A stretch of 64,000 bases of DNA from positions 32,001 through 96,000 of IMG/VR virus record IMGVR_UViG_3300008108_000039. One strand, written 5' to 3'. Positions 1-32,039 of the stretch are shown one piece after another. The notes under the pieces are model-generated. The model worked only from the letters and a program-made list of their open reading frames with translations, was not told where the DNA came from and made no database searches. Each line of letters starts with the position of its first letter. The stretch's first letter is position 1. The DNA is from a virus. The translations under genes were made by a program, and so were the position numbers.

Positions 1-95
1 ACTTCAGGATAAATTGCTCTAGTTGTTTGATAAAAATGTTTGTTGTAGTCTAAATTATTTTTTAAAGCTACTAATAATGATATTTTATTTTCCAT
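1..95 (-). CDS. 5' end of a probable GT2 glycosyltransferase (runs off window)
   Basis: Read manually: ATG at 95, MENKISLLVALKNNLDYNKHFYQTTRAIYPE, resembling a GT-A N-terminal strand/helix; overlaps the upstream gene's stop. Confidence 0.5.
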   Translation of the reverse strand, partial: MENKISLLVALKNNLDYNKHFYQTTRAIYPE

Positions 96-1005
96 GTTGT
101 AATTTTTTTATTTGATCTTGAATAAATCCAAGAACACCAGTATTAAAATTTTCTCGTTGTTCAGATACATCTCTTTTAACTAATAAATTTTTATAGTAAT
201 TAGAAAAACCATTTACAGTATCGGTTCTTAAAGGACCAATACCATATTCAAATACTATTTGTCCATCTAAACGATATTGGGAAAAATCATATCCTAATTT
301 AGTAGCATTAGATGCAACTATCATACTATACCAATCATAAGCACCATATCCTTTCCATTCATCTGGTATTTGACATAATTCTTCATAAAAAGCTTTATTA
401 TATACATCAAACCATCCTGCCCACTTTATTTGGTCAAGTTCTGTTAAACCAACTGTATCAGAAAAAGTATGTAGATAATGATCAACATCAAATATATCTG
501 TTGTTTTTTCCCATCCATAATGAGGACCAACAGCAAATTTAGGATGTGTTAATACTTCCCAAGTATTGTCCCACATTCTACAAATTTGAGGTGTTAATAC
601 AAAGTATTTATTTTTAATTTCTCTAACAGCCAAAGTTAAATAATTTAATAAATACTCACTAAAGTACATATCAGGACAAATACTAATATAATATTCTGTT
701 TCAGGTTCTATAGCATCACGTTGTAAATCTAAATGCCCCCATAATTCATCACCTTCATATATAAACATATCATGCTGATAATCTTTTAATAATATAGATA
801 TTGTTTTATATTTCTCAATAAAATATTCTTTAGGTAGTTTACTTGCTTCCCAGTTAATTAAATGACTAGATAAATTTAAAGCTGATTTAATTTTTATATT
901 AACATCAGGTTGTAAAAAATACTTTGATTTTTTTAGTTGGGTAAATGTTAATAAAGCGTAATCAATTTCCCAAGGCATTATATGATATGTAACTGTTATA
1001 TTCAT
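85..1005 (-). CDS. Putative glycosyltransferase (GT-A-like)
   Basis: 306 aa; CPD in DxD-like position and late GYGAYD motif; inside glycan locus. Confidence 0.5.
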   Translation of the reverse strand: MNITVTYHIMPWEIDYALLTFTQLKKSKYFLQPDVNIKIKSALNLSSHLINWEASKLPKEYFIEKYKTISILLKDYQHDMFIYEGDELWGHLDLQRDAIEPETEYYISICPDMYFSEYLLNYLTLAVREIKNKYFVLTPQICRMWDNTWEVLTHPKFAVGPHYGWEKTTDIFDVDHYLHTFSDTVGLTELDQIKWAGWFDVYNKAFYEELCQIPDEWKGYGAYDWYSMIVASNATKLGYDFSQYRLDGQIVFEYGIGPLRTDTVNGFSNYYKNLLVKRDVSEQRENFNTGVLGFIQDQIKKLQHGK

Positions 1006-1799
1006 TTTAATTTATTATATATTTCTTTGATACCTTGTTCTAATCCAATATAAGATAATGAGTATTTAGAAACATATTCACTCTTATAATCATTACCATT
1101 GTTTCCTAATATAATATCAACTTTATAGTCATCTAATTCATTTATTATATTAGCTATTTCTAATAAAGTATAATTTTTATCATATGAACAATAATCTTCT
1201 ATATGTAATTGATATTTGTTTGTTGTTATATAATGTTTTATTAATGTAATAAAATCCTTCATATAAAAAAAAGTCATTGCTTTATTTTCATAAACCTGTA
1301 AAGATTCTTTATTAATATATCTTTTAATATTAGACTTAATAAATCTAGTATCTAATTCATTCTCATCAAATAACCCAAATATTATTATATTAAAAAAATT
1401 AGGTGTTGATATTACTGAGGTTCTAATTATTGATTTACTAAGGCTATATGGAGTAGAAATAAAGGTAGATGGGGTGTAAGTAAAATGATTAAGTTCAACT
1501 CCTGAACCAAAATTTATAAATTTATCATAATTAGTATGTCTAAATTTATATAAATTAAAGTATATTTTTGTATTAATATCTTTTACTTCCTCACTATCCT
1601 CTTTTAATCGATGACCTCCTACAATGGCACAATGTAATACAACGTCAAAATATTTATTTTTAAAAAATTCTTCCATAGCATTAACATCAATCAAATCAAA
1701 ATCAGCTCTTGTAAGTGCTATTACTTCGTATTTATCTTTTAAAGCATTATACAATGATTTACCTATATAACCATTAGCTCCTGTAATTAATATTTTCAT
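1002..1799 (-). CDS. NAD-dependent epimerase/reductase (extended SDR); candidate YerF-like side-chain ketoreductase
   Basis: TGANGYIG Rossmann motif, YSLSK catalytic YxxxK; directly downstream of ThDP/DmpF/DmpG genes. Confidence 0.85.
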   Translation of the reverse strand: MKILITGANGYIGKSLYNALKDKYEVIALTRADFDLIDVNAMEEFFKNKYFDVVLHCAIVGGHRLKEDSEEVKDINTKIYFNLYKFRHTNYDKFINFGSGVELNHFTYTPSTFISTPYSLSKSIIRTSVISTPNFFNIIIFGLFDENELDTRFIKSNIKRYINKESLQVYENKAMTFFYMKDFITLIKHYITTNKYQLHIEDYCSYDKNYTLLEIANIINELDDYKVDIILGNNGNDYKSEYVSKYSLSYIGLEQGIKEIYNKLK

Positions 1800-2794
1800 T
1801 TTTTAAGTTTTTGAGCTACTTCTAAAATTAAATCTTCTTGACCAGCAACTAATTTTCTATTACCTAATTCAAATATTAGTGATGAATATTCAATACCATA
1901 TAATTTAGACGCTTTAATAATTGGTTTTTCAAAACCCGAAAATAAGCGATTTAAACCAGTTAAAACGTTTACAGGTGTAGATACCGGAGCTTGTGGTACC
2001 AAATATTCCATCACTTTATCCGCTTCTATAATAACTTTTTTGAAATCAATATTAATATCAAAATCCGATTTTTCTAATACTGGAATGAGCATTTCTAAGT
2101 GTGCATTACCAGCTCCGGCTCCAAAACCCCTAATACAAGCATCAATATATTTAGCACCACATTGAGCCGCTATTAATGAATTTGCTGTAGCTAAACCTAA
2201 GTTATCGTGAGCATGAAACCCAAAATCAATATCCAGGATATAACTTAACTCATCCATTCTTTCCTTAACATTAGATGGTAAATAAGTTCCTGTTGAATCC
2301 ATTATAATAACAGCATCAGCACCATATTCCTCCATTGTTTTGGCATTTCTAATTAATGTATCAATATCAGCTAAGGCACTCATCATTAATACACCAAATA
2401 CTTCTTTATCTTTATTTTTTAAATATTCAATGTGAGATTTAGATAAAGTAGCTTCCGTACAATGAGTAGCTACTCTAAATACATCTACTCCAATATTAAT
2501 TGCTTTTTCAATATCTTTCTTTACTGTAGCAATTCCTGGAATGATATGAACTCCTAATTTAGATGTTGTAAGATTTTCTCTAGCAGTCGTTAACATTTCT
2601 TCATCAGTAAGAGGTGATTGTCCTATCAATAATGATGAAGCTCCTAAACCGTTACCATGACCAACTTCAACAATAGGAATACCAGCACTATTAGCAAATT
2701 GACAATATCTCTTAATACTATCTAAAGTAATAGTATGTTTTACAGCATGGTTACCATCTCTTAAAGATGAATCTGTTATTATAATTTCATTCAT
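1796..2794 (-). CDS. dmpG: 4-hydroxy-2-oxovalerate aldolase
   Basis: DSSLRDGNH, EVGHGNGLGASS, ATHCTEA, HAHDNLG, GAGAGN, C-terminal VAGQEDLI communication domain. Confidence 0.93.
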   Translation of the reverse strand: MNEIIITDSSLRDGNHAVKHTITLDSIKRYCQFANSAGIPIVEVGHGNGLGASSLLIGQSPLTDEEMLTTARENLTTSKLGVHIIPGIATVKKDIEKAINIGVDVFRVATHCTEATLSKSHIEYLKNKDKEVFGVLMMSALADIDTLIRNAKTMEEYGADAVIIMDSTGTYLPSNVKERMDELSYILDIDFGFHAHDNLGLATANSLIAAQCGAKYIDACIRGFGAGAGNAHLEMLIPVLEKSDFDINIDFKKVIIEADKVMEYLVPQAPVSTPVNVLTGLNRLFSGFEKPIIKASKLYGIEYSSLIFELGNRKLVAGQEDLILEVAQKLKK

Positions 2795-3642
2795 TATATT
2801 AATTTTTTAGTCACTTCAATAGCAGCACAATTAATAATATCTAAATTACCTGCATATTCAGGTAAATAATCACCTGATCCTTTTACTTTAATACTAAGTA
2901 CTAATATATCATCATTTAATGTTGGTGGCATTACTAATTCATAGTAAGGAATATATGTTTGTAATTCTTTTATTTTATCGTATATTTTAGGAACTAAATT
3001 AGTAAAATCAACATCTTTAACCTTTAAGAACATTGTTGTTTGCATATCAACACAAGGTTCAGCTGGGTTAAGGTTTAAGATTACTTTGCAATTAGGACAT
3101 TTTGTAAATTGATGAATAGCTCTCTCAGTAGTATGAATATAATTATCAATATTAATTCTAGTAGCCATACCTGCACTTTTAGATGCTATTTGAGATACTA
3201 CTTCAATATACTCTAATCCCTCACAATATTGAGATATTAAATTAAGCATAGGCATTGATGCTTGACCACCACAAGTAATCATATTTACATTTCCTTCATT
3301 TTTAGCTATATCAGCATTAATACTAGGAACACATAAAGGACCTATTTTAGCTGGTGTTAAATCTATTACTATTATTCCTTGTTCTTTAAAAATAACAGCA
3401 TGCTGTTTAGCATCAGCAGCACTTGTGCAATCATAAACTACATCACAACATTTAGGATTATCAATAAAATATTTGATACCCTTATCAGTAACAGGTATTC
3501 CTTTATCTTTAGCAATTCTAATTCCATCAGAATCCATTCTGCGTCCTGCAAATATAACAGGAGTAATAAAGTCTGTCTTTAATATTTTAAGTAATAAATC
3601 AGTTCCTATATTACCAGTACCTATAATTCCTGCTTTAATCAT
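2794..3642 (-). CDS. dmpF: Acetaldehyde dehydrogenase (acylating)
   Basis: GTGNIGTDL, DLTPA, NVNMITCGGQA, SAGxATRxNID, GDYLPEYAGNLDI. Confidence 0.93.
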   Translation of the reverse strand: MIKAGIIGTGNIGTDLLLKILKTDFITPVIFAGRRMDSDGIRIAKDKGIPVTDKGIKYFIDNPKCCDVVYDCTSAADAKQHAVIFKEQGIIVIDLTPAKIGPLCVPSINADIAKNEGNVNMITCGGQASMPMLNLISQYCEGLEYIEVVSQIASKSAGMATRINIDNYIHTTERAIHQFTKCPNCKVILNLNPAEPCVDMQTTMFLKVKDVDFTNLVPKIYDKIKELQTYIPYYELVMPPTLNDDILVLSIKVKGSGDYLPEYAGNLDIINCAAIEVTKKLI

Positions 3643-5432
3643 CTTTTTATTTGTTTAGATTTTTCACTAACTCCAATAATCATTTCTTTTTTTACTATTT
3701 CAAATGGAAGTAATGGAGACATTTCTTCAATAGGAGGAGCAAATATACTACCATCTTCTTTAAGAACTCCTTTTACTTTAGGAATAAAATCCTGTTCTGG
3801 ATCCATAAACACTTCTAATACTGTAGCTTTATTATTATTTATGAATGCATTTACTACAGTATCAAAATCGTCCCATTTCTTTAATCCATAGTAATTATAT
3901 CCAAAGGCAGGCATTAATTTGCTAAAATCAGGTAACCCTACACCTGTTTTTTTATCTACATTTACATAATTTCCTTTAAATAGCATCTTTTGAGTATGCT
4001 TAATCATTAAGTATCCATCATTATTGAATATTACTATTTTTACAGGTAAATTATTCTCTACAATAGTATGTGCTTCTTGTAAATTCATCATCATCCCACC
4101 ATCACAATTTAAACATAGTACAGGTCTATCAGGACATGCTAATGCTGCTCCTAAAGCTCCAGGTAGGCCATATCCCATTTCTCCCAAACCTAATGATGTA
4201 AACATTGTTTGATTAGGTTTTAACTTAATTGCTTGATGGCCACTTAATAAAGCAGTACCCATATCAGTTACTATGATATGGTTGTCTTTTAAATGATCAG
4301 ATAATCTATCTATAAATTTATATGAATTAAGATAACCATTATCATTATGAATATTTTCATCTACCCAAGGATATTTTTGTTTTATTTCGTTACAATAGTT
4401 AACCCATTCTTCTTTGTAGCCCCAAATTCTGTAAGAATTATCTATAAGCTTATTTATAACGTATTTACAATCAGTTTGTATATAATTTACATTATATTTA
4501 TTTCCTTCATTTTTATCAATATCAATAACTATAATCTTAGCGTTTCTAGCAAATTGACTAAAGTCATATCCTACCTGAGGTAAAGCTAATCTACTACCTA
4601 ACACAATTATTAAATCAGCATTTTGTACTATAAAATTAGCTGCTCGTTGTCCATATAATCCAAAACGACCAAAAAAATTAGGATTATCATTATCTAATAA
4701 ATCAATACCTGACCAGGTTAATAGTGTGGGTATTCTTAATATTGAATTAAGTTGTTTAAATTTATCTTTTGCTCCAGATAATTTAACACCGTGCCCTCCA
4801 ATTACAACAGGACGTTTAGAAAAATTAATAGATTCAATAATTTCATCAACACTAAGTTGACTACCCGAAACATTTAAAAAAAGCGGATAATCAGGCCATA
4901 CTTTCTCTTCAACCATTTTAGCTTGTAAATTCATTGGTACATCTAACCAACAAGGACCTGGTCTTCCCATAGTTGAAGAGTCATATAATATTTCTAAAAT
5001 TGCTTGAATATCATATTCATCATTAAAAGCTATAGCACATTTAGTAACATCTTCTACCATTTTAGTTATGTTTAGACCCTGTGTGCCATACATTCTAAGA
5101 TGTTCTTGAGTACTTACATAATTATAATTTTCTTGTCCTGAAATAATTAACCCAGGAATTGAATCAGCCCAATTACTAACAACACCAGTCACAGCATTGG
5201 TTGCTCCTCCTCCTGCTGTTACTAATGCTACAGATAATTTACCTGATGCTCTGTAATAAGCTCCCATTGCTAATACAGCAGCCTGTTCATTATGAACATT
5301 AATAATTTTAGTATAACCTAATTTATTAATTGAATCAAATATATGTGAGTTAGCAGATCCTATAATACCAAATGCAGTATTAATTTCTTTTCTTTTTAAA
5401 AACTCTGCTATTACATCACTTACTTTTACCAT
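3639..5432 (-). CDS. ThDP-dependent carboligase (acetolactate synthase/YerE-like)
   Basis: HNEQAA catalytic Glu, GRPGPCWLDVP, GEMGYGLPGALGA, ThDP motif CDGG...NNDGY. Confidence 0.9.
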   Translation of the reverse strand: MVKVSDVIAEFLKRKEINTAFGIIGSANSHIFDSINKLGYTKIINVHNEQAAVLAMGAYYRASGKLSVALVTAGGGATNAVTGVVSNWADSIPGLIISGQENYNYVSTQEHLRMYGTQGLNITKMVEDVTKCAIAFNDEYDIQAILEILYDSSTMGRPGPCWLDVPMNLQAKMVEEKVWPDYPLFLNVSGSQLSVDEIIESINFSKRPVVIGGHGVKLSGAKDKFKQLNSILRIPTLLTWSGIDLLDNDNPNFFGRFGLYGQRAANFIVQNADLIIVLGSRLALPQVGYDFSQFARNAKIIVIDIDKNEGNKYNVNYIQTDCKYVINKLIDNSYRIWGYKEEWVNYCNEIKQKYPWVDENIHNDNGYLNSYKFIDRLSDHLKDNHIIVTDMGTALLSGHQAIKLKPNQTMFTSLGLGEMGYGLPGALGAALACPDRPVLCLNCDGGMMMNLQEAHTIVENNLPVKIVIFNNDGYLMIKHTQKMLFKGNYVNVDKKTGVGLPDFSKLMPAFGYNYYGLKKWDDFDTVVNAFINNNKATVLEVFMDPEQDFIPKVKGVLKEDGSIFAPPIEEMSPLLPFEIVKKEMIIGVSEKSKQIKR

Positions 5433-6409
5433 ATAAAGTTTTTCTTATAATATTCTACTATTTTAGGGAGTTCTTCATTAAATATTCTTTTAGGTTTCCA
5501 ACCAAACGCTCTTAATTTAGAATCATCTAAAGAATATCTAACATCTTGTCCTGCTCTAGAATAAGTTAAATCTAAATACGAGTTAAACATTGGTAATTTA
5601 GGTTTACCTCCTTCATATTCAAAAATTACTTTCGCTACCGTATCATAGTTTGATTGTTCAAACCCACCAGCTATATTAAATATTTCATTTGATAATCCAA
5701 ATTCAATAATAGTAGTTATAGCATCTGCTGTATCAGCAGCGTGTAACCAATTACGAACTGGGGTTCCATTATTATGTAAAGGTATTTTTCTTCCTAATTT
5801 TAAATGCTGTACTGCTTTAGGGATTAGTTTTTCAACATATTGACCTATACCATAATTGTTAGTTGGTCTAACTATAATATAAGGTATATCATATGTTCTA
5901 GCCCACGATAATATTAATAAATCAGCTGCAGCTTTAGTTGCTGCATATGGATTTGATGGTTTTAAAATATCTTTTTCTGTATGTGAACCTTCACTTATAT
6001 CACCATATACTTCATCAGTACTAAATTGAATTAATGTTGGTGTTCTAGAACTTTCTTGTCTATAATTTCTAATTAATTCAAGTAAGTGATGTACTCCATC
6101 TATATTTGAATGAATAAAAGTTTCGCTATTAGTTATTGAATTTCCAACATGAGTTTCAGCTGCCGTATTAATGATGTAATCACAATCATGTAAAAATTCT
6201 ATATCATTAATATCTTTTTGTTCAAATCTAAAATTTGAATGTCTACTAAATTCATTTAGTAAAGAAGGAAATACAGCGTTATAATCCATAGAAGCGTATG
6301 TTATTTTATCTATTCCTCTAACATACCATCCTTTTTTAAGACAAGCTCTGGTAACATAAGAACCTATAAATCCTAAACATCCAGTTACGTATACTACTTT
6401 TGTACTCAT
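5426..6409 (-). CDS. rfbB: NDP(dTDP)-glucose 4,6-dehydratase
   Basis: GCLGFIG, DKITYA, AAETHV, STDEVYG, PSNPYAATKA, EKLIP, RNWLH, RAGQDVRY. Confidence 0.88.
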   Translation of the reverse strand: MSTKVVYVTGCLGFIGSYVTRACLKKGWYVRGIDKITYASMDYNAVFPSLLNEFSRHSNFRFEQKDINDIEFLHDCDYIINTAAETHVGNSITNSETFIHSNIDGVHHLLELIRNYRQESSRTPTLIQFSTDEVYGDISEGSHTEKDILKPSNPYAATKAAADLLILSWARTYDIPYIIVRPTNNYGIGQYVEKLIPKAVQHLKLGRKIPLHNNGTPVRNWLHAADTADAITTIIEFGLSNEIFNIAGGFEQSNYDTVAKVIFEYEGGKPKLPMFNSYLDLTYSRAGQDVRYSLDDSKLRAFGWKPKRIFNEELPKIVEYYKKNFIW

Positions 6410-7239
6410 TTAAAATAATTTTGACAGTGTTTTATAAATTTAAAAACATTTTTGTGCATCTCCAACTTTATTTTTTCAATTTCATCAAACATCATAGGTA
6501 AAGTTTCTAACGCTCTAGGAATATCTTCTTCACCATACGCAATACCATATTTATATAATTGTGAACCATTTAGCCATTCGTCTTTTGTTTTATTTCCATC
6601 TGGTATTACTATGCTAATACAACCGCACATAGCCGCTTGAGTAAATATAAATGTATAATTGTCATAGCAATAAAATCTTTCAGTTCTATTAAATAAATTA
6701 GCTAATCCTGTTAAATCTCCTGCTGCTTCAAATGGAATAAAAAATGAATCTGTTGGATGAATTAATGTTGTTGGTTTAGCTTTTCGGATTGTGTAACAAC
6801 TACCTTTACGTTCATAATTCATATTTGTAAATATATCACTATGAAATTCTAAAATAAATAGTTGGTTATCTTTTTGTCCTAAATAATCATTATAATAATA
6901 ATCCATATACCAATACACTAAATCTGACTTAGAATAGGTTTCAGCTGCTTGTTGATCAAACGGACCTAATATCCATCTAACCACATTTTTAGCATTTAAA
7001 GGATTACCTTGTATTCCTTCAGGATATATTACTACAGTATTATCTAAATCATTAAGTATCTCCTGAGTAATTAAGGGTGTGTTATAATCAGAGCAAGTAT
7101 AAAAATCATCTTTAATATGAATAGGCATTAAATAAGCCTCAGAACCATTAGAATTAAGCATATCACATAACTTATGCATTACTTTAATCCCACCTACCCC
7201 AGGACTATAATCATATGTGTATATAACAAATTTTTTCAT
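6406..7239 (-). CDS. WavQ-like glycan biosynthesis protein / putative glycosyltransferase
   Basis: GGIKVMHKLC, IYPE..GNPLNAKNVVRWIL, YCYD...AAMCGC resemble the WavQ-type family; glycan context. Confidence 0.55.
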   Translation of the reverse strand: MKKFVIYTYDYSPGVGGIKVMHKLCDMLNSNGSEAYLMPIHIKDDFYTCSDYNTPLITQEILNDLDNTVVIYPEGIQGNPLNAKNVVRWILGPFDQQAAETYSKSDLVYWYMDYYYNDYLGQKDNQLFILEFHSDIFTNMNYERKGSCYTIRKAKPTTLIHPTDSFFIPFEAAGDLTGLANLFNRTERFYCYDNYTFIFTQAAMCGCISIVIPDGNKTKDEWLNGSQLYKYGIAYGEEDIPRALETLPMMFDEIEKIKLEMHKNVFKFIKHCQNYFK

Positions 7240-7973
7240 TGCGGGTAGGATAAATTTTCATTTTGAAACCAATATACGTTTTTAGAATACTGTTCTTCTC
7301 CCATACAATGGTTAGCATCAGGAGTGTAAGGTAATTCTATTATTCTTGGTTTATCCATAGCATGAGCTATCACTGCTGGAGCTGATAAATTAGCTATCAC
7401 TAAACTTGCTGAATTGATAGCTGTAAACCATTCATCCAATGTTATTACTTTATAAAATTTAATTCTATTGTTATAAGGAAATTCATTATAATCATTTATA
7501 TTAGATGATATAAATAATATATTTTCATCTCCATATTCATCTAAAACACGATCATAAGGAAATGAAGGATTTCTCATTACATTTGCTTTGCGTTGGATTA
7601 ATACTTTTCCTTCTAAATCCGGATTTATTTTACCCCAATTAATCCATTTATATTCTTCATTGATAGGAAAATCAAAAGTTTTACTATATAATTCAGACCA
7701 ACAAGTTTTATATAACCAAGGTGAATTAATATATTGACCTAAATCAATACTTCCTTCTTTTGGACCATCTGATATTAACAATTCATTAATATAACTTTGC
7801 TGCTCTAATATAGGTTTTAATTCAGCATGAGTATTTTGAATACCAAATTCCCAACCAATATCATACATATAAACATTGGCTTTAGTTCCATTATGTTGAC
7901 ATATATGTTTTACAGCAAATAAAGAATGAAGAAAATCTCCTAATCTCCCTCCCATTGAAAAACTACTTACCAT
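7236..7973 (-). CDS. GT-B (GT9-like) glycosyltransferase
   Basis: N-terminal GRLGD; C-terminal IANLSAP..IAHAMDKP heptosyltransferase-like motif. Confidence 0.55.
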   Translation of the reverse strand: MVSSFSMGGRLGDFLHSLFAVKHICQHNGTKANVYMYDIGWEFGIQNTHAELKPILEQQSYINELLISDGPKEGSIDLGQYINSPWLYKTCWSELYSKTFDFPINEEYKWINWGKINPDLEGKVLIQRKANVMRNPSFPYDRVLDEYGDENILFISSNINDYNEFPYNNRIKFYKVITLDEWFTAINSASLVIANLSAPAVIAHAMDKPRIIELPYTPDANHCMGEEQYSKNVYWFQNENLSYPQ

Positions 7974-8214
7974 ACATTTTGGTTGAACCCTGTTTATATA
8001 ATTTTTGTAATTTACCTGTTTCTATCATTTCGTTTAATTTCTCATCTATTTCCTGAATTAAATCAGTGCGATAAGAATTAGCTACATTAGTAATACGTGT
8101 TGCATTTGCAATTTGTGTGTCTGTAGCATCTTTATTTCTTTTAATATCCTCAGCCATCCAAATGCGAATGTTAGTAATGGTGAGTTTATCAATCAAATTT
8201 CCAATTGTATCCAT
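7963..8214 (-). CDS. Small helical protein (DUF4254-like), glycan-locus associated
   Basis: TIGNLIDKLTITNIRIW..ED..R...N..R..LIQEID. Confidence 0.55.
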   Translation of the reverse strand: MDTIGNLIDKLTITNIRIWMAEDIKRNKDATDTQIANATRITNVANSYRTDLIQEIDEKLNEMIETGKLQKLYKQGSTKMYGK

Positions 8215-8215
8215 A

Positions 8216-9427
8216 TTAACCTATTATTTCAAATTTAGGACAAGGTACTATAAATTTACCTCCCCCATTTAAATATTTTTTTTCTCTTTGAACAAATTCA
8301 TTTATAAAATGCCAAGGTAATACCAACATGTAATCTGGTTTCATTTCTCTAACTGCTTCTTCTGATAATATTGGAATATTAGTTCCAATTGTTTTTAACC
8401 CATATTTGTAAGGAGAACGTTCTGCAATAGCATCAATTAAAGTGTGATCTAAACCAAACCATTGTAATAATGTATTTCCCTTAGTTGAAGCTCCATAACC
8501 ACAAATCTTTTTACCTTTTGCTTTTTCTTCTTTAATAAAATTTACAGTTTGTTCTTTTAACGCTTCAATATTCTTCATAAATTGTTCCCATACCTCAGGA
8601 TTACTAATGTTATAATGAGAATTTTCATATTCAAGTAATGATTGTATTCTAAAATTACAAACATCCCTCAAAGGACCTGTACCAAATGAATTTATATTAG
8701 CTTTATTTTTTTGAACATATACTCTAAAACTACCCCCATTAACATCATTTAAGCTACAATCTACAATTTTTAAATCATGTTTAGCAAATAGTTTTTTAAG
8801 TGAATTTAATGAATAATAATAAGCATGTTCATGACAAATATTATCAAATGCTAACTGTTGCAACATTAATGGGGTATAAGATAATTGTAATACCCAAACA
8901 CCATTATCATCTAATACCTTATTAATATCTTCAACAAATGAGTGGGGATTTATCAAATCGTAAAACATAGCAATTGTAGTAATTACTTTTGCTTTTTTAG
9001 TAGATGCAAAAAGATATGCTCTATGACTAAAATAATCTTGAACAATCATATTAGCCACCTTAGATGATTCAGCTACAAAAGTATCATCAGCTGGGTCTAT
9101 TCCTATTTTATAATATGTATTAGGTACTTGTTTAAGTAAAGTACCATCATTACAAGCAATATCTAACCAAATATCTCCTGTTTGATGTTTTACTCTTGAT
9201 ATAATTTCCCCAACAACATTACTTAATTCTCTAATCATAGTAGTATTAATACCACTTCTATACCAATACTTTCCCCACATAGTATTAGATGGAGCTACTT
9301 CAATTAAACGAGCAGCACCTATACTTTCATCTATTTCTAGATCTAGTCTATATTTTTCTTTACCAATATAATCTTTATCTGATTTTATAAAGTCAGATAC
9401 ATAATGTTTACCTAAGTTTACTATCAT
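8216..9427 (-). CDS. NDP-hexose C-methyltransferase (SAM-dependent)
   Basis: LDIACNDGTLL, FDNICHEH, NGGSFR, GYGASTKGNTLL, PDYMLVLPWHF. Confidence 0.88.
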   Translation of the reverse strand: MIVNLGKHYVSDFIKSDKDYIGKEKYRLDLEIDESIGAARLIEVAPSNTMWGKYWYRSGINTTMIRELSNVVGEIISRVKHQTGDIWLDIACNDGTLLKQVPNTYYKIGIDPADDTFVAESSKVANMIVQDYFSHRAYLFASTKKAKVITTIAMFYDLINPHSFVEDINKVLDDNGVWVLQLSYTPLMLQQLAFDNICHEHAYYYSLNSLKKLFAKHDLKIVDCSLNDVNGGSFRVYVQKNKANINSFGTGPLRDVCNFRIQSLLEYENSHYNISNPEVWEQFMKNIEALKEQTVNFIKEEKAKGKKICGYGASTKGNTLLQWFGLDHTLIDAIAERSPYKYGLKTIGTNIPILSEEAVREMKPDYMLVLPWHFINEFVQREKKYLNGGGKFIVPCPKFEIIG

Positions 9428-10395
9428 TGTTGTAATAATTTTATATCGTTTTTAACCATTTTTGAAATCATTTCACTAAATGATGTTTTAGGTTCCCATC
9501 CTAATTTTTGTTTTGCTTTAGAAGCATCTCCTTTTAAAACATCTACTTCTGCAGGTCTAAAAAATTTTTCATCTTTAATTACATACTTAGACCAATCATC
9601 AATTCCTATAGTTTTAAATGATTCATTTAATAAATCTCTAATACTATGAGTTACACCTGTCGCTAAAACATAATCATCAGGTTCATCTTGTTGTAACATT
9701 AGCCACATTCCTTCTACATAATCAGGAGCATATCCCCAATCTCTAATAGCTTCTAAATTACCTAATGCTAGGTTTTCAGACATACCTAAATAAATTTTAG
9801 CTACACCGTAAGTTACTTTTCTTGTAACAAATTGCTTACCACGTCTTTCAGATTCATGATTAAATAAAATACCACTACAGTTATACATTCCGTAAGACTC
9901 TCTATAATTTTTACAAATCCAATGACCATATAATTTAGCTACACCATATGGAGAACGAGGATAAAATGGAGTAGTTTCTTTAGCTGGATTTTCAACCATT
10001 TTTCCAAACATTTCAGATGATGATGCTTGATAAAATCTAATGTTTGATTTTTTATATTCTCGAATAGCTTCAAGCATCCTTAAAACACCTACACCAGTTG
10101 TATTAGCTATTACTTCAGGAGTACCCCAACTATCTTCCACAAGTGATTGTGAAGCTAAATTATATATTTCGTCAGGATCTGATTCTTTAATACATCTAAC
10201 TAATGAATTTTGATCAGCTAAATCCCCCTTAAGAATATTTACTTTACCTATTAAATGAGCAGTATTCGTTCTATCTTCATTTGCTTTACGTCTTTCCATT
10301 CCAAATACTTCATACCCTTTAGATAACAAAAAATCACATAGATGACTACCATCCATCCCATTGAAACCAGTTACTAATGCCCTTTTTTTACTCAT
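9424..10395 (-). CDS. gmd: GDP-mannose 4,6-dehydratase
   Basis: GMDGSHL, YQASSSEMFG, PFYPRSPYGVAKLY, LFNHESERRG..FVTRK, RDWGYAPDY, FRPAEVD. Confidence 0.95.
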   Translation of the reverse strand: MSKKRALVTGFNGMDGSHLCDFLLSKGYEVFGMERRKANEDRTNTAHLIGKVNILKGDLADQNSLVRCIKESDPDEIYNLASQSLVEDSWGTPEVIANTTGVGVLRMLEAIREYKKSNIRFYQASSSEMFGKMVENPAKETTPFYPRSPYGVAKLYGHWICKNYRESYGMYNCSGILFNHESERRGKQFVTRKVTYGVAKIYLGMSENLALGNLEAIRDWGYAPDYVEGMWLMLQQDEPDDYVLATGVTHSIRDLLNESFKTIGIDDWSKYVIKDEKFFRPAEVDVLKGDASKAKQKLGWEPKTSFSEMISKMVKNDIKLLQQ

Positions 10396-11704
10396 ATTGT
10401 TTTATAAATTTATCTAAAATGGTTTCTATATAATCTGTTTTTTCCTTATTAATTACAGGTGATGTTCCTAAAAAGAATGTATCTGTAGTTACTTTCCTAG
10501 CTACAGGATATAATTCAATTATATCTTTAGGGTTAGCTAAATGTGTATAAGCAGGTTGTAACATAATATTACCTGCAAAATAAGGTCGTGTTTGTATTTT
10601 ATTTGCTTCAAAAAACTTACAAATATCAGAACGTTTAAATGGAGCATCATCTTTAACAGTTACTGGGAACGCAAACCAATCAACATCTGCTCCAGGTTGT
10701 GCTTTATGTAAATGAAAATATTGTTCATATCTGCTAAAAGCTGTAAATAAGTTTTTATAATTTTCTCTACGCTTAATACCTATTTCTTCTAATTTTCCCA
10801 TTTGAACTAAGCCAATAGATGCTTGTAATTCAATTGGTTTTAGATTATACCCTATTTCTTCATAAACGTATTTGTGATCAAATATATCATTGGGTAATGC
10901 GGGAAGCCAATTATTAAAGCGACAATCACAAGTTCCATTTTCAAGTAAATTTTGTTTACCTACACAATAACATCCTCTACCCCATTCTCTAAAACTACGA
11001 ACAATACGTTCTGTTTCTATATCATTCATAGCTACAAATCCACCTTCACCCATTGTGATATGATGAGCTGGATAAAATGAACAACTAGCCATTTTACCAA
11101 ATGATCCTAGTGGTTTACTATCAAATGTAGTTCCTAGAGCATCACAACAATCTTCTAATAGAATTAAATTATATTTTTTAATTATTCCCATTAAACGATG
11201 CATATTAGGTGGATTTCCTAATACATGAGCAAAAGTAATAATTTTTGCATCTGGGTTGTTACGGCATGCTTGTTCTACTTGGTCTAAATCTAAATTTAAT
11301 GTTTCTAATTCAATATCAACAAATATAGGAGTAAATCCTACTTGTAATATAGGATTAATTGTAGTTGGAAAACCAGCTATGGGAGTAATTACTTTAGTAC
11401 CTTTAGGTAAATTTAAACCACGTTTAGAAGTTAAAGCTAACATCATTAATAAATTAGCACTTGAACCACTATTTGTTAATATACCATATTCTTTACCAAA
11501 CAATTTAGGAAATTTACGTTCAAATTTAATTGCTTCTGCTCCTAATACTAACCATTCACCTAACAATGTTTTAACAGCTGCTACGTATTCAGCTGAAGAA
11601 AAATAAGGTCCAGCATATTGAACCCAATCCTTACCAGCTTCCCATGTTTTATCAGCATGTTTTTTGCTAATATATTCTTCTACCAATTTTAGAATATCTT
11701 GCAT
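10388..11704 (-). CDS. rfbH: NDP-4-keto-6-deoxyhexose 3-dehydrase (E1, RfbH/DdhC)
   Basis: NSGSSANL, EDCCDALG, SFYPAHHITMGEGG (His in place of the aminotransferase Lys), Fe-S Cys cluster GRGCYC...CDC, DHKYVY, RPYFAGN. Confidence 0.92.
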   Translation of the reverse strand: MQDILKLVEEYISKKHADKTWEAGKDWVQYAGPYFSSAEYVAAVKTLLGEWLVLGAEAIKFERKFPKLFGKEYGILTNSGSSANLLMMLALTSKRGLNLPKGTKVITPIAGFPTTINPILQVGFTPIFVDIELETLNLDLDQVEQACRNNPDAKIITFAHVLGNPPNMHRLMGIIKKYNLILLEDCCDALGTTFDSKPLGSFGKMASCSFYPAHHITMGEGGFVAMNDIETERIVRSFREWGRGCYCVGKQNLLENGTCDCRFNNWLPALPNDIFDHKYVYEEIGYNLKPIELQASIGLVQMGKLEEIGIKRRENYKNLFTAFSRYEQYFHLHKAQPGADVDWFAFPVTVKDDAPFKRSDICKFFEANKIQTRPYFAGNIMLQPAYTHLANPKDIIELYPVARKVTTDTFFLGTSPVINKEKTDYIETILDKFIKQYE

Positions 11705-12516
11705 TAGATTATTTCATTTAATTTAAATATTTCTGTAATGCTATCAATTATATTTTGTTCGTAATCAACATAATTAAGAGCTAATTTATAATTATCATTA
11801 ATAATATCTAAACGTTCATTGTAATAATTTTCATCTAGTTGATTTACTTTAACTATCAATTCATCAATATTATTAAATATAATAATTCCTTCTGGCCTAA
11901 AAAAATTAGATATTGATGTACATCCCCAATATACCGGAATGGTTTTTAATAAAAAACAGTCTAATATTTTTTCTGTAAAGTATCCATTATGTGAAGTATT
12001 TTCTATAGCTACTCCAAACATTGAATTACCAAATACTTCTTCTTTACCTATTCTAGCTTTTTCAATATTGTGTCTATCTCCATATGTAGCATAAAAATTA
12101 GTAGGTATTTTTATTTCATTTTTTCTATCTAATAATTCGTGTCTTAATGATTGACCGTGTGTTTTCAATAAAGTGCCTCTTAAATGAGATAACTCAAAAC
12201 GTTTTTCATGTGGTTGTTCATATTGAAAAGGTTTAAACCAAGTATGTCCAAAAGGTAAAAACACAGCATTTTCACAATTGTTTATTACCTTATCATCCCA
12301 TGTTAATATACATGAAAATAAATGTTTATTGGTAATAGCCCAATCATGTAATCCAAAATATTCATTTGGTTCCTGAAGTACTAATACATTAATATCAGAT
12401 AATTCTTCTGATTTTTCAGGTATAGCATCTACAAATAAAGAAAAATCTATATGTTCAAGATGTGATAATTTTTTTCTGAATATTTCTATATCGAAGTAAT
12501 TAACTTTTAATTTCAT
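11704..12516 (-). CDS. GT10-like (alpha-1,3-fucosyltransferase family) glycosyltransferase
   Basis: FGVAIENT..GYFTEKILDCF...TIPVYWG GT10 motif. Confidence 0.8.
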   Translation of the reverse strand: MKLKVNYFDIEIFRKKLSHLEHIDFSLFVDAIPEKSEELSDINVLVLQEPNEYFGLHDWAITNKHLFSCILTWDDKVINNCENAVFLPFGHTWFKPFQYEQPHEKRFELSHLRGTLLKTHGQSLRHELLDRKNEIKIPTNFYATYGDRHNIEKARIGKEEVFGNSMFGVAIENTSHNGYFTEKILDCFLLKTIPVYWGCTSISNFFRPEGIIIFNNIDELIVKVNQLDENYYNERLDIINDNYKLALNYVDYEQNIIDSITEIFKLNEII

Positions 12517-13139
12517 AATGTGCTATAATAATTGTTTTGTTTTTCTTGTCTTTCTATTGTTTTAGGATGGATTAAACATAATTCATCAAGTGGGGGAAAA
12601 CTAGTTAGTAAATTATATCCTTGCAACACTTCATGTACTTTATTTTTCCAAGTTATATTTCCATTATTTTTCCAAATGCGCCACTGAAAGTCAGGAAAGT
12701 TTACTCTATTATTTTCTACTATCCATCCCCATTTTTGGATATGTTCTTTAGTTAAACCTTCTACTGTATTAATTCTAGGGACTAAAAAAACATCTGTATC
12801 AGAATTATGTTCTAATATAATAGGTAAATTTACTATTAAATCAACATGAGGATATTCATCTGCATCAATTTGGAATATATAATCTCTAGTACAATGTTTA
12901 CTTAAATTGTTTTTAAATAAAGCAAAATCATTATTTAATGGATACCATATTCTATGATATTCATAAGATGTATTAACATTATATTTTTCTGCTACTAGTT
13001 TTACTTCTGATGTAGCTGTAGTATCTAATTGGACTACAATTTCATCTTCAGGACGAATATATTTGTTTAATAAATCTAATAAACGTTCTAATTCAACATG
13101 TTCATTACATGCTGTAATCGCATAACTAATTGAAGGCAT
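12513..13139 (-). CDS. GT2 glycosyltransferase
   Basis: ISYAITACNE, FQIDADE, PDFQWRI, VHE. Confidence 0.85.
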   Translation of the reverse strand: MPSISYAITACNEHVELERLLDLLNKYIRPEDEIVVQLDTTATSEVKLVAEKYNVNTSYEYHRIWYPLNNDFALFKNNLSKHCTRDYIFQIDADEYPHVDLIVNLPIILEHNSDTDVFLVPRINTVEGLTKEHIQKWGWIVENNRVNFPDFQWRIWKNNGNITWKNKVHEVLQGYNLLTSFPPLDELCLIHPKTIERQEKQNNYYSTL

Positions 13140-13143
13140 AACA

Positions 13144-13536
13144 TTATATTTGATTGAAATATCCTATATATTCAAGAGCATCCATAAATTCATTTTGCTC
13201 ATATTCTTTTTTAGTTGTCATATCTGCTTTTCCATCTCGGGCTTGTACAGCAGACCATTTCCAATCATCTACTGATGTTCCCTCAGCAAATACCATTGAT
13301 TTATCTTCTAACATTACACTATTGGGATACCAATATTTACCCTCTCCATCTTTATACCTTAAAGCTATATATAATTCAGGTAGAGCAAATTCCATTTCTT
13401 CAACATTTTTATCTGTAATGGTATTATTGGAAGTAAATCCACATCCCATACAAATCCAAATAATTACTCTACCATCTGTTATTTCGCTACAGGCGTTTCC
13501 ACCACATTTAGCACATGTTATAAGTGATTCTTTCAT
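13144..13536 (-). CDS. Hypothetical Zn-ribbon protein
   Basis: CAKCGGNAC and CMGCG pairs. Confidence 0.6.
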   Translation of the reverse strand: MKESLITCAKCGGNACSEITDGRVIIWICMGCGFTSNNTITDKNVEEMEFALPELYIALRYKDGEGKYWYPNSVMLEDKSMVFAEGTSVDDWKWSAVQARDGKADMTTKKEYEQNEFMDALEYIGYFNQI

Positions 13537-13592
13537 AATTTAATGTGTTATTTTGAAAAATATATATTACTCCACCTGTATTATTTGTCATT

Positions 13593-13907
13593 CTAGTATA
13601 TTTGTTTTTCTAAATCATCATTTTCTACGGAATATTGTTTTTTTAAATCTTCTACTATTATTTTATCAATTTTTTCTATAGCTTCTTTTGATAAATTCTT
13701 TCTAGCTATAATATCAAAAGGATTATTTTCAAATTGTAATGACTTAGCAAAGTCATAAGGATCAGTAGGATTTAATATTAAAGCTCTAATAACAGGATTA
13801 CAACTTACTTTATTCTGTACAGCTTCTTCTACTAATTTTTTAAATCTTTTGTTTTGTTGTTTATATTGTTGTCTTTTTTCAATCCAACTTTTAATAAATT
13901 TAAACAT
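13593..13907 (-). CDS. Hypothetical protein
   Basis: 104 aa ORF tightly packed on the coding strand. Confidence 0.55.
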   Translation of the reverse strand: MFKFIKSWIEKRQQYKQQNKRFKKLVEEAVQNKVSCNPVIRALILNPTDPYDFAKSLQFENNPFDIIARKNLSKEAIEKIDKIIVEDLKKQYSVENDDLEKQIY

Positions 13908-13909
13908 TG

Positions 13910-15205
13910 TTATTCAGTTTTTAATTTAGGTAATTCTATTTTCTTTAATTGAGGTAATTTAAATTGAGTTTGTTTTGGGACTTTAGCATCTAAAATAGCA
14001 TCTAATTTTTCAGCCATTTTATCTAAACTAAATTCAGTACGTGAACGATAAGCTTGTCTTTTAGCTCCTTCATTATATTTTTTATAATTTTTATAAATTT
14101 CTTCTAAAGCATCAGATCCTTCTTTTTCACCTACTGTAAACCACTGTGATTCAGATAAAATCATATTTTGTACTACAGCAGAAGGGTGAACTTGAGTTAA
14201 TGCACCTCCTACTAATGGAGTAAAATCAGGATCTAAGAAATCTAAATGAGCACTCCAAGCTGAGGCCAGTACTGGTTTTTGAGATAATGTAGCTTCAAGT
14301 AATGGCCTACCATAACCTTCACCTTTAGTAAATGACACGTGTGTCTTAATTTTAGGATGATTGTACAGTTCATTTATTTCTTCATCACTAAATTCTCCAT
14401 GAAGTAAATAAATTGATGGTAGTTTTCCTTTTACTGAGTTTTGAATAGCTCTAATTTTATCTAACATTTCTTCTCTATCCATAACACATGGAGTTGCAGA
14501 TTGTGTTTTTAAAATTAAAGCAGGTTGTTTAGGTTTATTTTTAAATGTTTCAAGAAATATTCTTACTAATCCAGATACATTTTTTCTATCTTCATTCATT
14601 TCACCTTGCAACCAATGTCCTACAAATAAGAAAGCATATTCTTCAGGAATTTCATCTATAAATTCAAATAATTCTTTATTTTTGAATTCTTCAATTTTTT
14701 TATAAATGTTTGTATTAACACCTTCAAATAATACTTCTACTGGTGCTTTTAATTCTATAAGTGATTCTACTTGTCCTGTTTGTTGATTACGTTTTTCAAA
14801 TTTAGAGTTTTGGAATACTTTTTTAGCATGCTCCGATGATACTAAGGTTAAATTCATTCTATTTACTCCTTCAATCCAACTAGGATCACATAAGGTAGTT
14901 TCAATACCTGCTGTCATACCTATATTAAACTTACCTACCTGTTGAAATTCATTAGGTACTGTTATTTGCATCCAAATATCAGGTTGTTTTGGTAGTTGAT
15001 TATTTACCATAATACATGATGCTATTTTTTCATGATCTGGATTTCCTGGTTTTAAAAAACCAAATGGTGTGTTTCCCCATCTTTGAGGTAATACTTTTAC
15101 ATCATATTTGTTTGTATTAATGATAGATAATACTACATCTCTTGAGCGTGCGCCATATCCACTGAATGTATCAATAGGGCAACTTATAACGAATAATGGT
15201 TTCAT
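13910..15205 (-). CDS. GT4-like glycosyltransferase
   Basis: SGYGARSRD, DRKNV, TKGEGYGRPLLEA (EX7E). Confidence 0.85.
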   Translation of the reverse strand: MKPLFVISCPIDTFSGYGARSRDVVLSIINTNKYDVKVLPQRWGNTPFGFLKPGNPDHEKIASCIMVNNQLPKQPDIWMQITVPNEFQQVGKFNIGMTAGIETTLCDPSWIEGVNRMNLTLVSSEHAKKVFQNSKFEKRNQQTGQVESLIELKAPVEVLFEGVNTNIYKKIEEFKNKELFEFIDEIPEEYAFLFVGHWLQGEMNEDRKNVSGLVRIFLETFKNKPKQPALILKTQSATPCVMDREEMLDKIRAIQNSVKGKLPSIYLLHGEFSDEEINELYNHPKIKTHVSFTKGEGYGRPLLEATLSQKPVLASAWSAHLDFLDPDFTPLVGGALTQVHPSAVVQNMILSESQWFTVGEKEGSDALEEIYKNYKKYNEGAKRQAYRSRTEFSLDKMAEKLDAILDAKVPKQTQFKLPQLKKIELPKLKTE

Positions 15206-15206
15206 A

Positions 15207-16667
15207 TTATTTTGCGATAACGTGTTTTACAAAATGTTTTGGTTGTTTAAGTGATTCAACAGGAATAAATTCAAATTGGTATCTTGGTGTCCATTTTTCA
15301 AAAGTTTCATCAATAGCACTAATTACATTTTTAGACATCCATCTAGCTGATTCCATTGATTCATCTGATGTAACCCATTCACGAGCAGCTTTACATTGTT
15401 CCTCATATACTTCAGGAGTTTCTATTTTAGTTTTATATAAAGCCATTATTTGATCAGCTATATCAAATGGTTCAGCTCTATCATCGAATATATAAGGTGT
15501 AGGAGGAGAACCAACTAAAGATAAATTAGATGGAAATACGGGATAAGCCCATTTACCATGTTTTTTATATTTGCCTCTATGATTTGAACCAAATTCTTCT
15601 GTAAATTGAATCCATTTACCATTTTCATCTTCAAAACGCATTTGATCTTGCATACCACCTGTTACAGTAGCAATAATTGGTTTTCCACACATCATTGCTT
15701 CAGTTAATGATAATCCCCAACCTTCATTAGATGAAACTAAGGCACAACCATCAGTAGCATTATAAAGTAAATTCATAATATTAGCTGGATATCTTCCTTG
15801 GTCAAATATAATTTGAGCTCGTTCATCATATCCAAATAGATTATCTTTTACGGCTTGTAAATCAGTTCCATTATCATCTACTACTTGGGTATGGAGTACT
15901 AAAGCACATTTTTTAGCTTGTTCATCTGTTAATTTGTCAATGAATATCTTCCAAGCTAATACTAGATCAGGTACAGATTTACGGCGGATGTTACGCGCAT
16001 TATATAGTAGAGTAAAATCATACTTTTTTTCTCCATACAATTGCTTTTTAAATTCTTCCAAAGTTAAATACTCAGTTTTATCTTTAGTAATAGGAAAAAA
16101 TATTTCTTCATTAATTCCGTGAGGAACATATTTAATTACTTTTTCAGCTGATAATTCAACTCCTAATACCGATCTATTTATGTTTTCTGTTTGTTTACTA
16201 ATTGCAAGTAAGGCATCACATGATTCATAAAATGATTTATTATACATTGGGTAAGGTAAATCATCCCAAATATTTAAATAAATAATAGGTATTTGTTTTC
16301 TAATCTCATACTCCATTTGAAATAACCAAATCCAATATCTAGGATCAGTAAACATCATAATAGCATCGGGACGTTCCATTTGTATTAGTTGTCTAACAAT
16401 TTCTGGGCTGCCATAACCATCTGTAGGATATAAAAATACACTAGCATCTTCAATACTAGCTATTTTATTGGTGTCTGCGTTTAGATCAAATTTTTGACCT
16501 TTATCAGGGTGAGTAATAGCACCTCCTAAATTTACCCAATTATAGTGATGTGCTGTACCTAAAACGATTTCTCTAGCCATAGTGGAAACACCACTTGTCA
16601 TTCGGATATCGTCACATAGTAATAGGATTTTTTTGCGTTGAGCTTGTGGAATATAACCTTCTTTCAT
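15207..16667 (-). CDS. GT4 glycosyltransferase
   Basis: VPHGI, RNIRRK, SSNEGWGLSLTEAMMCGKP (EX7E), TGGMQDQ. Confidence 0.88.
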   Translation of the reverse strand: MKEGYIPQAQRKKILLLCDDIRMTSGVSTMAREIVLGTAHHYNWVNLGGAITHPDKGQKFDLNADTNKIASIEDASVFLYPTDGYGSPEIVRQLIQMERPDAIMMFTDPRYWIWLFQMEYEIRKQIPIIYLNIWDDLPYPMYNKSFYESCDALLAISKQTENINRSVLGVELSAEKVIKYVPHGINEEIFFPITKDKTEYLTLEEFKKQLYGEKKYDFTLLYNARNIRRKSVPDLVLAWKIFIDKLTDEQAKKCALVLHTQVVDDNGTDLQAVKDNLFGYDERAQIIFDQGRYPANIMNLLYNATDGCALVSSNEGWGLSLTEAMMCGKPIIATVTGGMQDQMRFEDENGKWIQFTEEFGSNHRGKYKKHGKWAYPVFPSNLSLVGSPPTPYIFDDRAEPFDIADQIMALYKTKIETPEVYEEQCKAAREWVTSDESMESARWMSKNVISAIDETFEKWTPRYQFEFIPVESLKQPKHFVKHVIAK

Positions 16668-31366: not shown

Positions 31367-31387
31367 TGGTGCTTGTAGAGAACAACA

Positions 31388-32023: not shown

Positions 32024-32039
32024 ATTATATTTTTAATGT

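Follow-up and report, generated by a model that had tools for sequence, protein, structure and literature searches.

A candidate erwiniose-type branched-sugar cassette in a myovirus record from IMG/VR

Described branched-sugar systems and the phage cassette

Pectobacterium atrosepticum SCRI1043 encodes a thiamine diphosphate (ThDP) enzyme (erwE), a reductase (erwF), an acetaldehyde dehydrogenase (erwJ), and a BphI-related pyruvate aldolase (erwI) beside genes for CDP-4-keto-3,6-dideoxyglucose (Steitz et al. 2022, PMC9306805). In the route proposed for erwiniose, DmpFG-type enzymes run backwards to 4-hydroxy-2-oxopentanoate, the donor for the ThDP enzyme. The donor accepted by ErwE is (R)-4-hydroxy-2-oxopentanoate and not pyruvate, and tests excluded an aldolase step that would follow the branching (PMC9306805). 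Here, we analysed a 64,000-nucleotide stretch of viral DNA, hereafter the window (positions 32001-96000 of the 167,479-bp IMG/VR record IMGVR_UViG_3300008108_000039). On its minus strand, at window positions 1002-11704, the same four enzyme types, the reductase being a putative one, lie side by side with 4-keto-deoxyhexose genes, in what would be the same logic.

Three other systems are relevant for comparison. In the yersiniose A pathway of Yersinia pseudotuberculosis, YerE catalyses the same ThDP-dependent C4 branching of a nucleoside diphosphate (NDP)-4-keto-3,6-dideoxyhexose made with the 3-dehydrase E1, followed by reduction by YerF, a short-chain dehydrogenase/reductase (SDR). YerE uses pyruvate, giving a C2 branch, and has no DmpFG partners, whereas the phage locus has them. 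Janthinobacterium sp. HH01 has JanthE, a YerE-like carboligase that accepts ketones and is defined by an unusual CDG ThDP-binding motif; its donors include 4-hydroxy-2-oxovalerate. The meta-cleavage complexes DmpFG, BphIJ, and XylQK share with the phage pair the fold, metal ligands, catalytic Arg, His, and Cys, and communication domain.

The record is that of a phage, a myovirus, and CheckV rated it 99% complete. On the strand of the cassette, the window also encodes a tail sheath, a family-B DNA polymerase, ribonucleotide reductase (RNR), a DnaB-like helicase, and GroEL. Almost all genes are on the minus strand, and GC content is 25-35% throughout the window, without a compositional break at the cassette. 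By tail sheath, the nearest cultured relative is Flavobacterium phage vB_FspM_immuto (49% identity). The cassette belongs to a sugar-gene island of ~18 kb (record 30938-48667), bordered by a ClpP-like gene and small phage open reading frames (ORFs) at one edge and by a PD-(D/E)XK nuclease and a clamp-loader gene at the other.

The run is translationally coupled, with nearly all junctions overlapping by 1-11 nt. Its order is E1/RfbH, a Gmd-type dehydratase, a C-methyltransferase, a DUF4254 protein, two GT-B ORFs, an RmlB-type dehydratase, the ThDP carboligase, DmpF, DmpG, and the SDR. All the genes named by the first-pass annotation, an earlier reading of the bare sequence, were found on the minus strand, where the stop of one gene overlaps the start of the next; the C-methyltransferase, the DUF4254 protein, and the two GT-B-fold ORFs come in addition to its list. 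The E1 gene and the five-gene core are as follows.

10388-11704, minus strand: E1/RfbH-type NDP-4-keto-6-deoxyhexose 3-dehydrase, dependent on pyridoxamine 5'-phosphate and [2Fe-2S] (NCBIfam RfbH 451.5 bits, cut-off 423)
5426-6409, minus strand: dTDP-glucose-type NDP-hexose 4,6-dehydratase (RmlB-like), first gene of the core (TIGR01181 279.5 bits, below the cut-off of 365)
3639-5432, minus strand: JanthE-type (YerE-like) ThDP carboligase, proposed C4-branching enzyme (three TPP domains; match to PDB 8rph)
2794-3642, minus strand: acylating acetaldehyde dehydrogenase of the DmpF/BphJ/ErwJ type (TIGR03215 317.7, cut-off 282)
1796-2794, minus strand: class II pyruvate aldolase of the DmpG/BphI/ErwI type, non-catabolic His83/Phe285 subfamily (TIGR03217 319.7, cut-off 286)
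1002-1799, minus strand: extended SDR with an RmlD/Fcl-like N-terminus, proposed side-chain ketoreductase in the ErwF/YerF role (PF01370 1e-16)

Judging from sequence, we favour with moderate confidence the view that this cassette is a viral version of the erwiniose-type pathway for acyl-branched deoxysugars, because of the Erw precedent, the conserved synteny of the core, the occurrence of E1 beside it or elsewhere on the record in related phages, the gene order of a bacterial relative (locus L043), the His/Phe clade of the aldolase, the JanthE-type ThDP enzyme, and identical contigs in an RNA library. The likeness to Erw was judged by enzyme types and gene context. The phage order is ThDP-DmpF-DmpG-SDR, compared with E-F-J-I in Erw. 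The locus also differs from the erwiniose cluster in being viral, in having a dTDP-glucose-type instead of a CDP-glucose-type dehydratase, and in having neither a nucleotidyltransferase nor an E3 reductase.

The first-pass annotation had proposed that DmpF and DmpG run in reverse to supply the ThDP donor. Gene content, order, and conservation support this in silico; the idea itself is not new, having been published for Pectobacterium in 2022. Since the mechanism is published, the cassette would be a viral variant of a known pathway and not a new kind of system. What would be new is that a virus carries the pathway, that related phages share it widely, and that the enzymes are distinct variants; our literature search found no paper reporting such a pathway in a phage. 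The variant would be set apart by its phage carriage, the dTDP-type entry dehydratase, the JanthE-type carboligase, and its reliance on host functions to activate the sugar and to reduce E1.

Proposed pathway and the acceptor sugar

In the proposed pathway, DmpF would convert acetyl-CoA to acetaldehyde, which DmpG would join to pyruvate to form 4-hydroxy-2-oxopentanoate, probably the 4R form. The RmlB-type dehydratase would act on an NDP-glucose from the host, in all likelihood dTDP- or UDP-glucose, to give the 4-keto-6-deoxy sugar, and E1 would take off its 3-OH with electrons from a host reductase. The JanthE-type enzyme would then decarboxylate the keto acid and add a 3-hydroxybutyryl unit at C4, after which the SDR would reduce the side-chain ketone to yield an NDP-3,6-dideoxy-4-C-(1,3-dihydroxybutyl)hexose. 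Finally, the soluble glycosyltransferases of the island would attach this branched sugar to a target, along with another, C-methyl-branched sugar that Gmd and the C-methyltransferase would produce. We infer these chemical steps, together with the nucleotide carrier and the target; what we observed directly is the identity of the genes, the residues of the active sites, the synteny and phylogeny, and the viral setting.

The assignment of E1 agreed with the first-pass annotation, which had noted a His-for-Lys exchange and Fe-S cysteines. The protein matched the Yersinia E1 structure (PDB 3bcx) at 6e-100. Its His214, within YPAHHITMGEGG, aligned with E1 His220, at the position where aminotransferases carry the PLP lysine. 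Cys186/187, 245, 247, and 259/261 matched the four-Cys [2Fe-2S] ligand pattern of E1, with a spacing of C-x-C-x11-C compared with C-x-C-x7-C in E1, so that the spacer is 4 residues longer. The protein also scored higher as RfbH/E1-type than as ColD-type (338 vs 173 bits), with the RfbH score above its cut-off.

The first-pass annotation had described a single NDP-glucose 4,6-dehydratase. Such an enzyme is present, but there are two dehydratases, a Gmd-type one adjoining E1 and a dTDP-glucose-type one adjoining the ThDP gene. The top PDB matches of the latter were all dTDP-glucose 4,6-dehydratases; it has YAATK at residue 155, and its gene is syntenic in 36 viral loci. The genes between E1 and the GT-B ORFs are the following.

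9424-10395, minus strand: GDP-mannose 4,6-dehydratase-like SDR, Gmd (PF16363 421 bits; TIGR01472 414.5, cut-off 415)
8216-9427, minus strand: NDP-hexose C-methyltransferase, TylC3-like (PF08484 1e-45, and PF13489)
7963-8214, minus strand: small DUF4254 protein, role unassigned (PF14063 3e-8)

In related phage loci (L004-L006, L016-L018, and L037), Gmd and the C-methyltransferase always co-occurred, and the two probably form a second branched-sugar route. The pair (8216-10395) looks like a route from GDP-mannose to a 3-C-methyl-6-deoxyhexose, for which a dedicated 4-reductase was not identified.

The nearest bacterial cassette, L043, lies at 7376-13921 on an 86-kb contig (JAQWSK010000013.1) of a Flavobacteriaceae metagenome-assembled genome (MAG), and its proteins are 60-71% identical to those of the phage. 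The order there is NTP-transferase, CDP-glucose-dehydratase-like SDR, E1, ThDP enzyme, DmpF, and DmpG, which is canonical 3,6-dideoxy logic. The surrounding polysaccharide locus also contains a UDP-glucose dehydrogenase, an ABC transporter, a GT2, a GNAT protein, and aminotransferases. L043 has no cassette SDR; the GNAT and aminotransferase genes follow DmpG instead, and the sugar made by this locus may be an amino-branched variant. The DmpG of L043 branches from within the phage clade, implying gene exchange between phages and Bacteroidota without setting the direction. Among 301 sampled Flavobacteriaceae genomes, only this MAG carried a close DmpG.

Neither a nucleotidyltransferase (PF00483) nor an E3-like domain (PF00175, PF00111) was found in the whole 167-kb record, which extends the earlier statement that neither is in the window. 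The electrons for E1 and the starting NDP-hexoses must therefore come from the host. SpnQ, an E1 homologue, functions with general cellular reductases.

Several observations weigh against the erwiniose-type reading. Although the dehydratase and E1 are present, the acceptor gene set is incomplete relative to the erwiniose pathway, as E3 and the nucleotidyltransferase are absent from the phage. The E1 gene of the window is coupled with those for Gmd and the C-methyltransferase, not with the RmlB-like gene, and records G306 and G307 carry only a 383-aa E1 homologue of 36-38% identity. It is thus uncertain which dehydratase feeds E1, and some, or perhaps all, of these phages may use a 6-deoxy acceptor in place of a 3,6-dideoxy one. 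JanthE takes pyruvate and other donors too, so homology does not fix the donor. Paraburkholderia carries a DmpF-DmpG-SDR-ThDP set without sugar genes, so a module of this kind need not act on a sugar. Finally, the RNA-library contigs that match the cassette, described below, may derive from contaminating DNA.

The acceptor question leads to the alternative that the cassette is the same and acts on another sugar. The ThDP enzyme would branch the RmlB product directly, with the 3-OH kept, while E1 and Gmd would work on GDP-4-keto-6-deoxymannose in a colitose-like route, perhaps with C-methylation; the branched product would be 6-deoxy. The contiguous and coupled arrangement of E1, Gmd, and the C-methyltransferase, found here and in L004, L016-L018, and L037, fits this alternative, as do the lack of a close E1 in G306 and G307 and the fact that the invariable neighbour of the ThDP gene is the RmlB-like gene and not E1. 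However, where Gmd is missing, E1 stands directly upstream of the RmlB-like gene (L012, L025, and L032) or elsewhere in the locus; in G304, G305, and G308 it is elsewhere on the record, 10-13 kb upstream of DmpG. E1 also directly precedes the ThDP gene in the bacterial L043, and the phage protein is RfbH/E1-type with Fe-S cysteines, not ColD-type. A 3,6-dideoxy acceptor is most likely, and a 6-deoxy acceptor is a serious rival; we consider the scheme with the other acceptor unlikely.

The ThDP carboligase and the DmpFG pair

The ThDP enzyme matched JanthE (PDB 8rph) over residues 2-595 at 3.7e-173 and 580 bits. The next PDB matches were 5ahk at 243 bits and the E. coli acetohydroxyacid synthase (AHAS) I at 236 bits; we take 5ahk to be the YerE homologue PpYerE. 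All AHAS models of NCBIfam stayed below their cut-offs (TIGR00118 332.5 vs 538). The protein has a CDG motif at residue 443 (CLNCDGGMMM) instead of GDG, as do all 120 close homologues. The earlier assignment as YerE-like thus held, the enzyme being far nearer to the YerE-like carboligase JanthE than to AHAS.

JanthE (PDB 8rph/8rpi/8rpj) is by far the best solved match and shares the CDG motif; the in vitro use of 4-hydroxy-2-oxovalerate is a property of JanthE. The phage enzyme differs in being set in an explicit sugar and DmpFG gene context, which offers a candidate physiological donor for the JanthE enzyme class.

Some ThDP-enzyme representatives at 33-39% identity (P0146, P0155, P0159, P0233, P0234, and P0255) have an extra N-terminal domain of ~250 aa, and P0148, P0221, and P0222 have a C-terminal extension. 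These extended forms are possible fusions with partner enzymes.

The DmpF and DmpG genes overlap each other and the ThDP gene (1796-3642 against 3639-5432). DmpF matched PDB 7z3s at 1e-69, with a predicted catalytic Cys124 in ITCGGQA. In the aldolase, Arg12, Asp13, His16, His194, and His196 match DmpG Arg17, Asp18, His21, His200, and His202, so that the catalytic set is kept. Two other positions differ: DmpG Leu88 (BphI Leu87) is His83 in the phage enzyme, and DmpG Tyr291 (BphI Tyr290) is Phe285. This His/Phe pair was invariant in 14 phage and three MAG sequences. A scan of genome contigs with very specific peptides returned three MAG loci. Leu and Tyr are kept in pWW0 XylK, Polaromonas BphI, the Rhodococcus and Thermus enzymes, and four Flavobacteriaceae enzymes.

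In BphI, Leu87 and Tyr290 lie on either side of the substrate C4. Stereocontrol is lost in the Y290F mutant, and the engineered double change L87N/Y290F turns the 4S-specific enzyme into a 4R-specific one (PMC3962088). The catabolic enzymes owe their 4S specificity to this Leu/Tyr pair; with His83 and Phe285 in its place, the phage DmpG probably makes the 4R enantiomer, the one that ErwE uses. The natural His/Phe pair at the BphI stereocontrol positions is a testable marker for biosynthetic, probably 4R, aldolases.

The SDR carries the motifs TGANGYIG and YSLSK (GxxGxxG and YxxxK) and is of the extended nucleotide-sugar type. Its gene directly follows DmpG in 35 viral loci. In one freshwater assembly (run X5), the SDR gene has an in-frame deletion of 21 nt at window position 1460, a natural indel variant.

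These enzymes could also be arranged in a yersiniose-type route, in which the ThDP enzyme adds a C2 acetyl unit from pyruvate and DmpFG supply or remove acetaldehyde or extend the branch later. YerE does use pyruvate, and JanthE, the closest solved relative, takes pyruvate as well as longer donors. However, in about 36 independent viral loci the DmpF and DmpG genes occupy a fixed place, with the ThDP gene on one side and the SDR gene on the other. ErwE, from the same gene arrangement, rejects pyruvate, the post-branching aldolase step is excluded for Erw, and the His/Phe change in the aldolase fits a dedicated synthetic product. We regard this route as quite unlikely.

In a maximum-likelihood tree of the aldolases, the catabolic enzymes split from a second clade at 100/100. 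Besides the phage sequences, this second clade contains homologues of 44-50% identity encoded on plasmids of Phaeobacter, Paraburkholderia, Streptomyces, and Rhizobium. Among these homologues, three have His at the first position and three have Phe at the second, where Phaeobacter has Cys; Streptomyces has Phe at both. The first-pass annotation had suggested comparing DmpG with catabolic and polysaccharide-locus homologues, and the phage enzyme stood apart from the former, with its nearest bacterial relative in a polysaccharide locus. Compared with DmpFG, BphIJ, and XylQK, the phage pair thus falls in a separate clade, has His/Phe in place of Leu87/Tyr290, has no catabolic neighbours, and is proposed to run in the reverse direction.

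The gene contexts in the second clade, read for Phaeobacter, Paraburkholderia, and Streptomyces (the Rhizobium record is unannotated), were non-catabolic: ATP-grasp and aminotransferase genes in Phaeobacter, DmpF-DmpG-SDR-ThDP in Paraburkholderia, and KASIII/ACP genes in Streptomyces. Such contexts point to a wider subfamily of DmpFG enzymes with a biosynthetic role, whose 4-hydroxy-2-oxo acids would be building blocks. In Phaeobacter piscinae pP36_c (L056), a His/Cys-type DmpFG accompanies two ATP-grasp genes, an aminotransferase, and an MFS transporter. Paraburkholderia phenoliruptrix pSYMBR3459 (L057) has the order DmpF-DmpG-SDR-CMD-ThDP, and a Streptomyces plasmid (L066) has the DmpFG pair with KASIII-ACP-MaoC-GNAT.

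With non-catabolic DmpFG relatives in non-sugar clusters of Phaeobacter, Streptomyces, and Paraburkholderia, the ThDP enzyme, DmpFG, and SDR of the phage might likewise make a small molecule other than a sugar (an acyloin or diol), the nearby sugar genes being incidental. The Paraburkholderia ThDP enzyme is, however, just 24% identical to that of the phage; in the phages, a sugar 4,6-dehydratase gene always opens the core, glycosyltransferase genes surround it, and the SDR is of the nucleotide-sugar type. Such a product appears very improbable.

Spread of the cassette and its glycosylation context

Scanning IMG/VR with the aldolase, we found 39 viral loci at 64-89% identity. The order and spacing of the core (RmlB-like, ThDP, DmpF, DmpG, SDR) were the same in nearly all of them, which answers the synteny search in phage genomes suggested earlier. 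The small phage ORFs that flank the island recur beside the cassette in 9-15 other contigs, and in other contigs a gene for RNR or a clamp loader is close by. The cassette also occurs together with a tail sheath of 52% identity in a 183-kb record rated 100% complete. Metagenomes contain over 120 cluster representatives of the ThDP protein with at least 72% identity, some on contigs of 130-180 kb. Among GenBank phages (INPHARED), no close ThDP or DmpG homologue was found, the matches of up to 34% identity being host-contaminated records, and PHROGs contained no counterpart of the aldolase.

Near-identical DNA, defined as at least 28% of sampled words, occurred in runs of nine further studies from 2018-2025, mostly of freshwater and lake metagenomes, in addition to the study from which the record may stem. 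The evidence does not include runs X16-X20, whose word shares were small, or uncovered RNA bins. Independent contigs cover the cassette, one of 4.2 kb spanning SDR to ThDP. Contigs from a metatranscriptome library were 100% identical to the DmpG, ThDP, RmlB-like, Gmd, E1, and glycosyltransferase genes, and one such contig crosses the island boundary.

These data speak strongly against the possibility, raised by the first-pass annotation, that the locus is a host contig chimera: the phage flanks recur, several assemblies are independent, and a contig bridges the boundary. The idea of a catabolic auxiliary metabolic gene (AMG) pair, serving the end of meta-cleavage or acetaldehyde handling, or of host contamination or a chimera is largely refuted and hardly credible. 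In its favour, DmpF and DmpG pass the NCBIfam equivalog cut-offs for catabolic enzymes, and K01666 appears in one virome paper as a viral AMG of amino-acid metabolism. Against it, genes for a hydratase, a dioxygenase, or a hydrolase are absent, and the aldolase clade stands apart at 100/100 from pWW0 XylK, Polaromonas BphI, and other catabolic enzymes. The stereo-determining residues differ, the island has the GC content and strand of the phage, and its phage flanks and assemblies are as just described. The absence of meta-cleavage genes (hydratase, hydrolase, and dioxygenase) from the island, which the first reading had noted for the window, contrasts with the pWW0 XylK operon, which has them.

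Automated annotation would label the cassette as 4-hydroxy-2-oxovalerate aldolase, acetaldehyde dehydrogenase, and acetolactate synthase. Such labels may lead virome studies to count it among aromatic-degradation or amino-acid AMGs, a risk foreseen earlier and illustrated by the K01666 listing. If the erwiniose-type reading is true, rare bacterial O-antigen chemistry, that of C4 acyl-branched higher-carbon sugars, extends to viruses, and phages carry complete branch-building modules beyond the common deoxysugar genes. To the earlier note, the present analysis adds the breadth of the cassette in freshwater phages, the His/Phe pair of the aldolase, and a physiological context for JanthE-type enzymes.

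The remaining features of the island concern glycosyl transfer.

11704-16667, minus strand: upstream part of the island, with a GT10-like protein, a GT2, two small unknowns, and two GT1/GT4 glycosyltransferases (Pfam and PHROG matches)
7236-7973, minus strand: predicted compact GT-B glycosyltransferase with a GT9/heptosyltransferase-like fold (AF2 pLDDT 88, pTM 0.88; Foldseek WaaC/WaaF/TibC E 4e-6, TMq 0.55-0.63)
6406-7239, minus strand: predicted compact GT-B glycosyltransferase with a GT4-like fold (AF2 pLDDT 86, pTM 0.80; Foldseek GT4 enzymes E 3e-6, TMq 0.5-0.6)
85-1005, minus strand: conserved 306-aa protein downstream of the SDR, function unassigned (same position in seven related loci)

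The two ORFs at 6406-7239 and 7236-7973 had no Pfam, NCBIfam, or PHROG match and were assigned by structure prediction; for 6406-7239, the Atlas lead pointed the same way. Both are unusually small (245-277 aa) and belong to virus-dominated families. A further GT2 lies just beyond the window, past the gene for the 306-aa protein.

The island encodes 7-8 glycosyltransferases, all soluble, and none of its proteins has a transmembrane segment. Flippase, polymerase, and initiating phosphoglycosyltransferase genes were not found in the island. Together, these features argue against a self-contained O-antigen or capsule pathway and fit a soluble target, such as virion proteins, or the feeding of host machinery. 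The only ThyA-family gene encodes an ordinary thymidylate synthase (TIGR03284 300.7 vs 108) and thus gives no sign of a hydroxymethylase and no hint of hydroxymethyl-pyrimidine DNA glycosylation, although DNA may still be a target.

The most extended form of the erwiniose-type reading is that a widespread freshwater myovirus clade, probably infecting Bacteroidota, makes its own erwiniose-type C10 branched sugar, and a C-methyl sugar, out of acetyl-CoA, pyruvate, and NDP-hexoses of the host. A naturally 4R-selective DmpG and a JanthE-type enzyme would serve for this, and the 7-8 soluble glycosyltransferases of the phage would put the sugar on a non-lipid target such as virion proteins. We offer this as a tentative and rather doubtful proposal. 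If true, it would mean a virus-specific glycan coat of unusual chemistry and would reveal the physiological role of the JanthE family.

The 306-aa ORF at 85-1005 had no Pfam, NCBIfam, or PHROG match. The thymidylate synthase gene, outside the window at 4171-5274 of the record (G000), encodes ~379 aa; the protein matches the family model in two or three separate pieces, as would be expected from an insertion of some size. Within the glycosyltransferase block, a 130-aa ORF at 13144-13536 gave weak zinc-ribbon matches only (E 0.01-0.02) and is kept in L013, L014, and L021.

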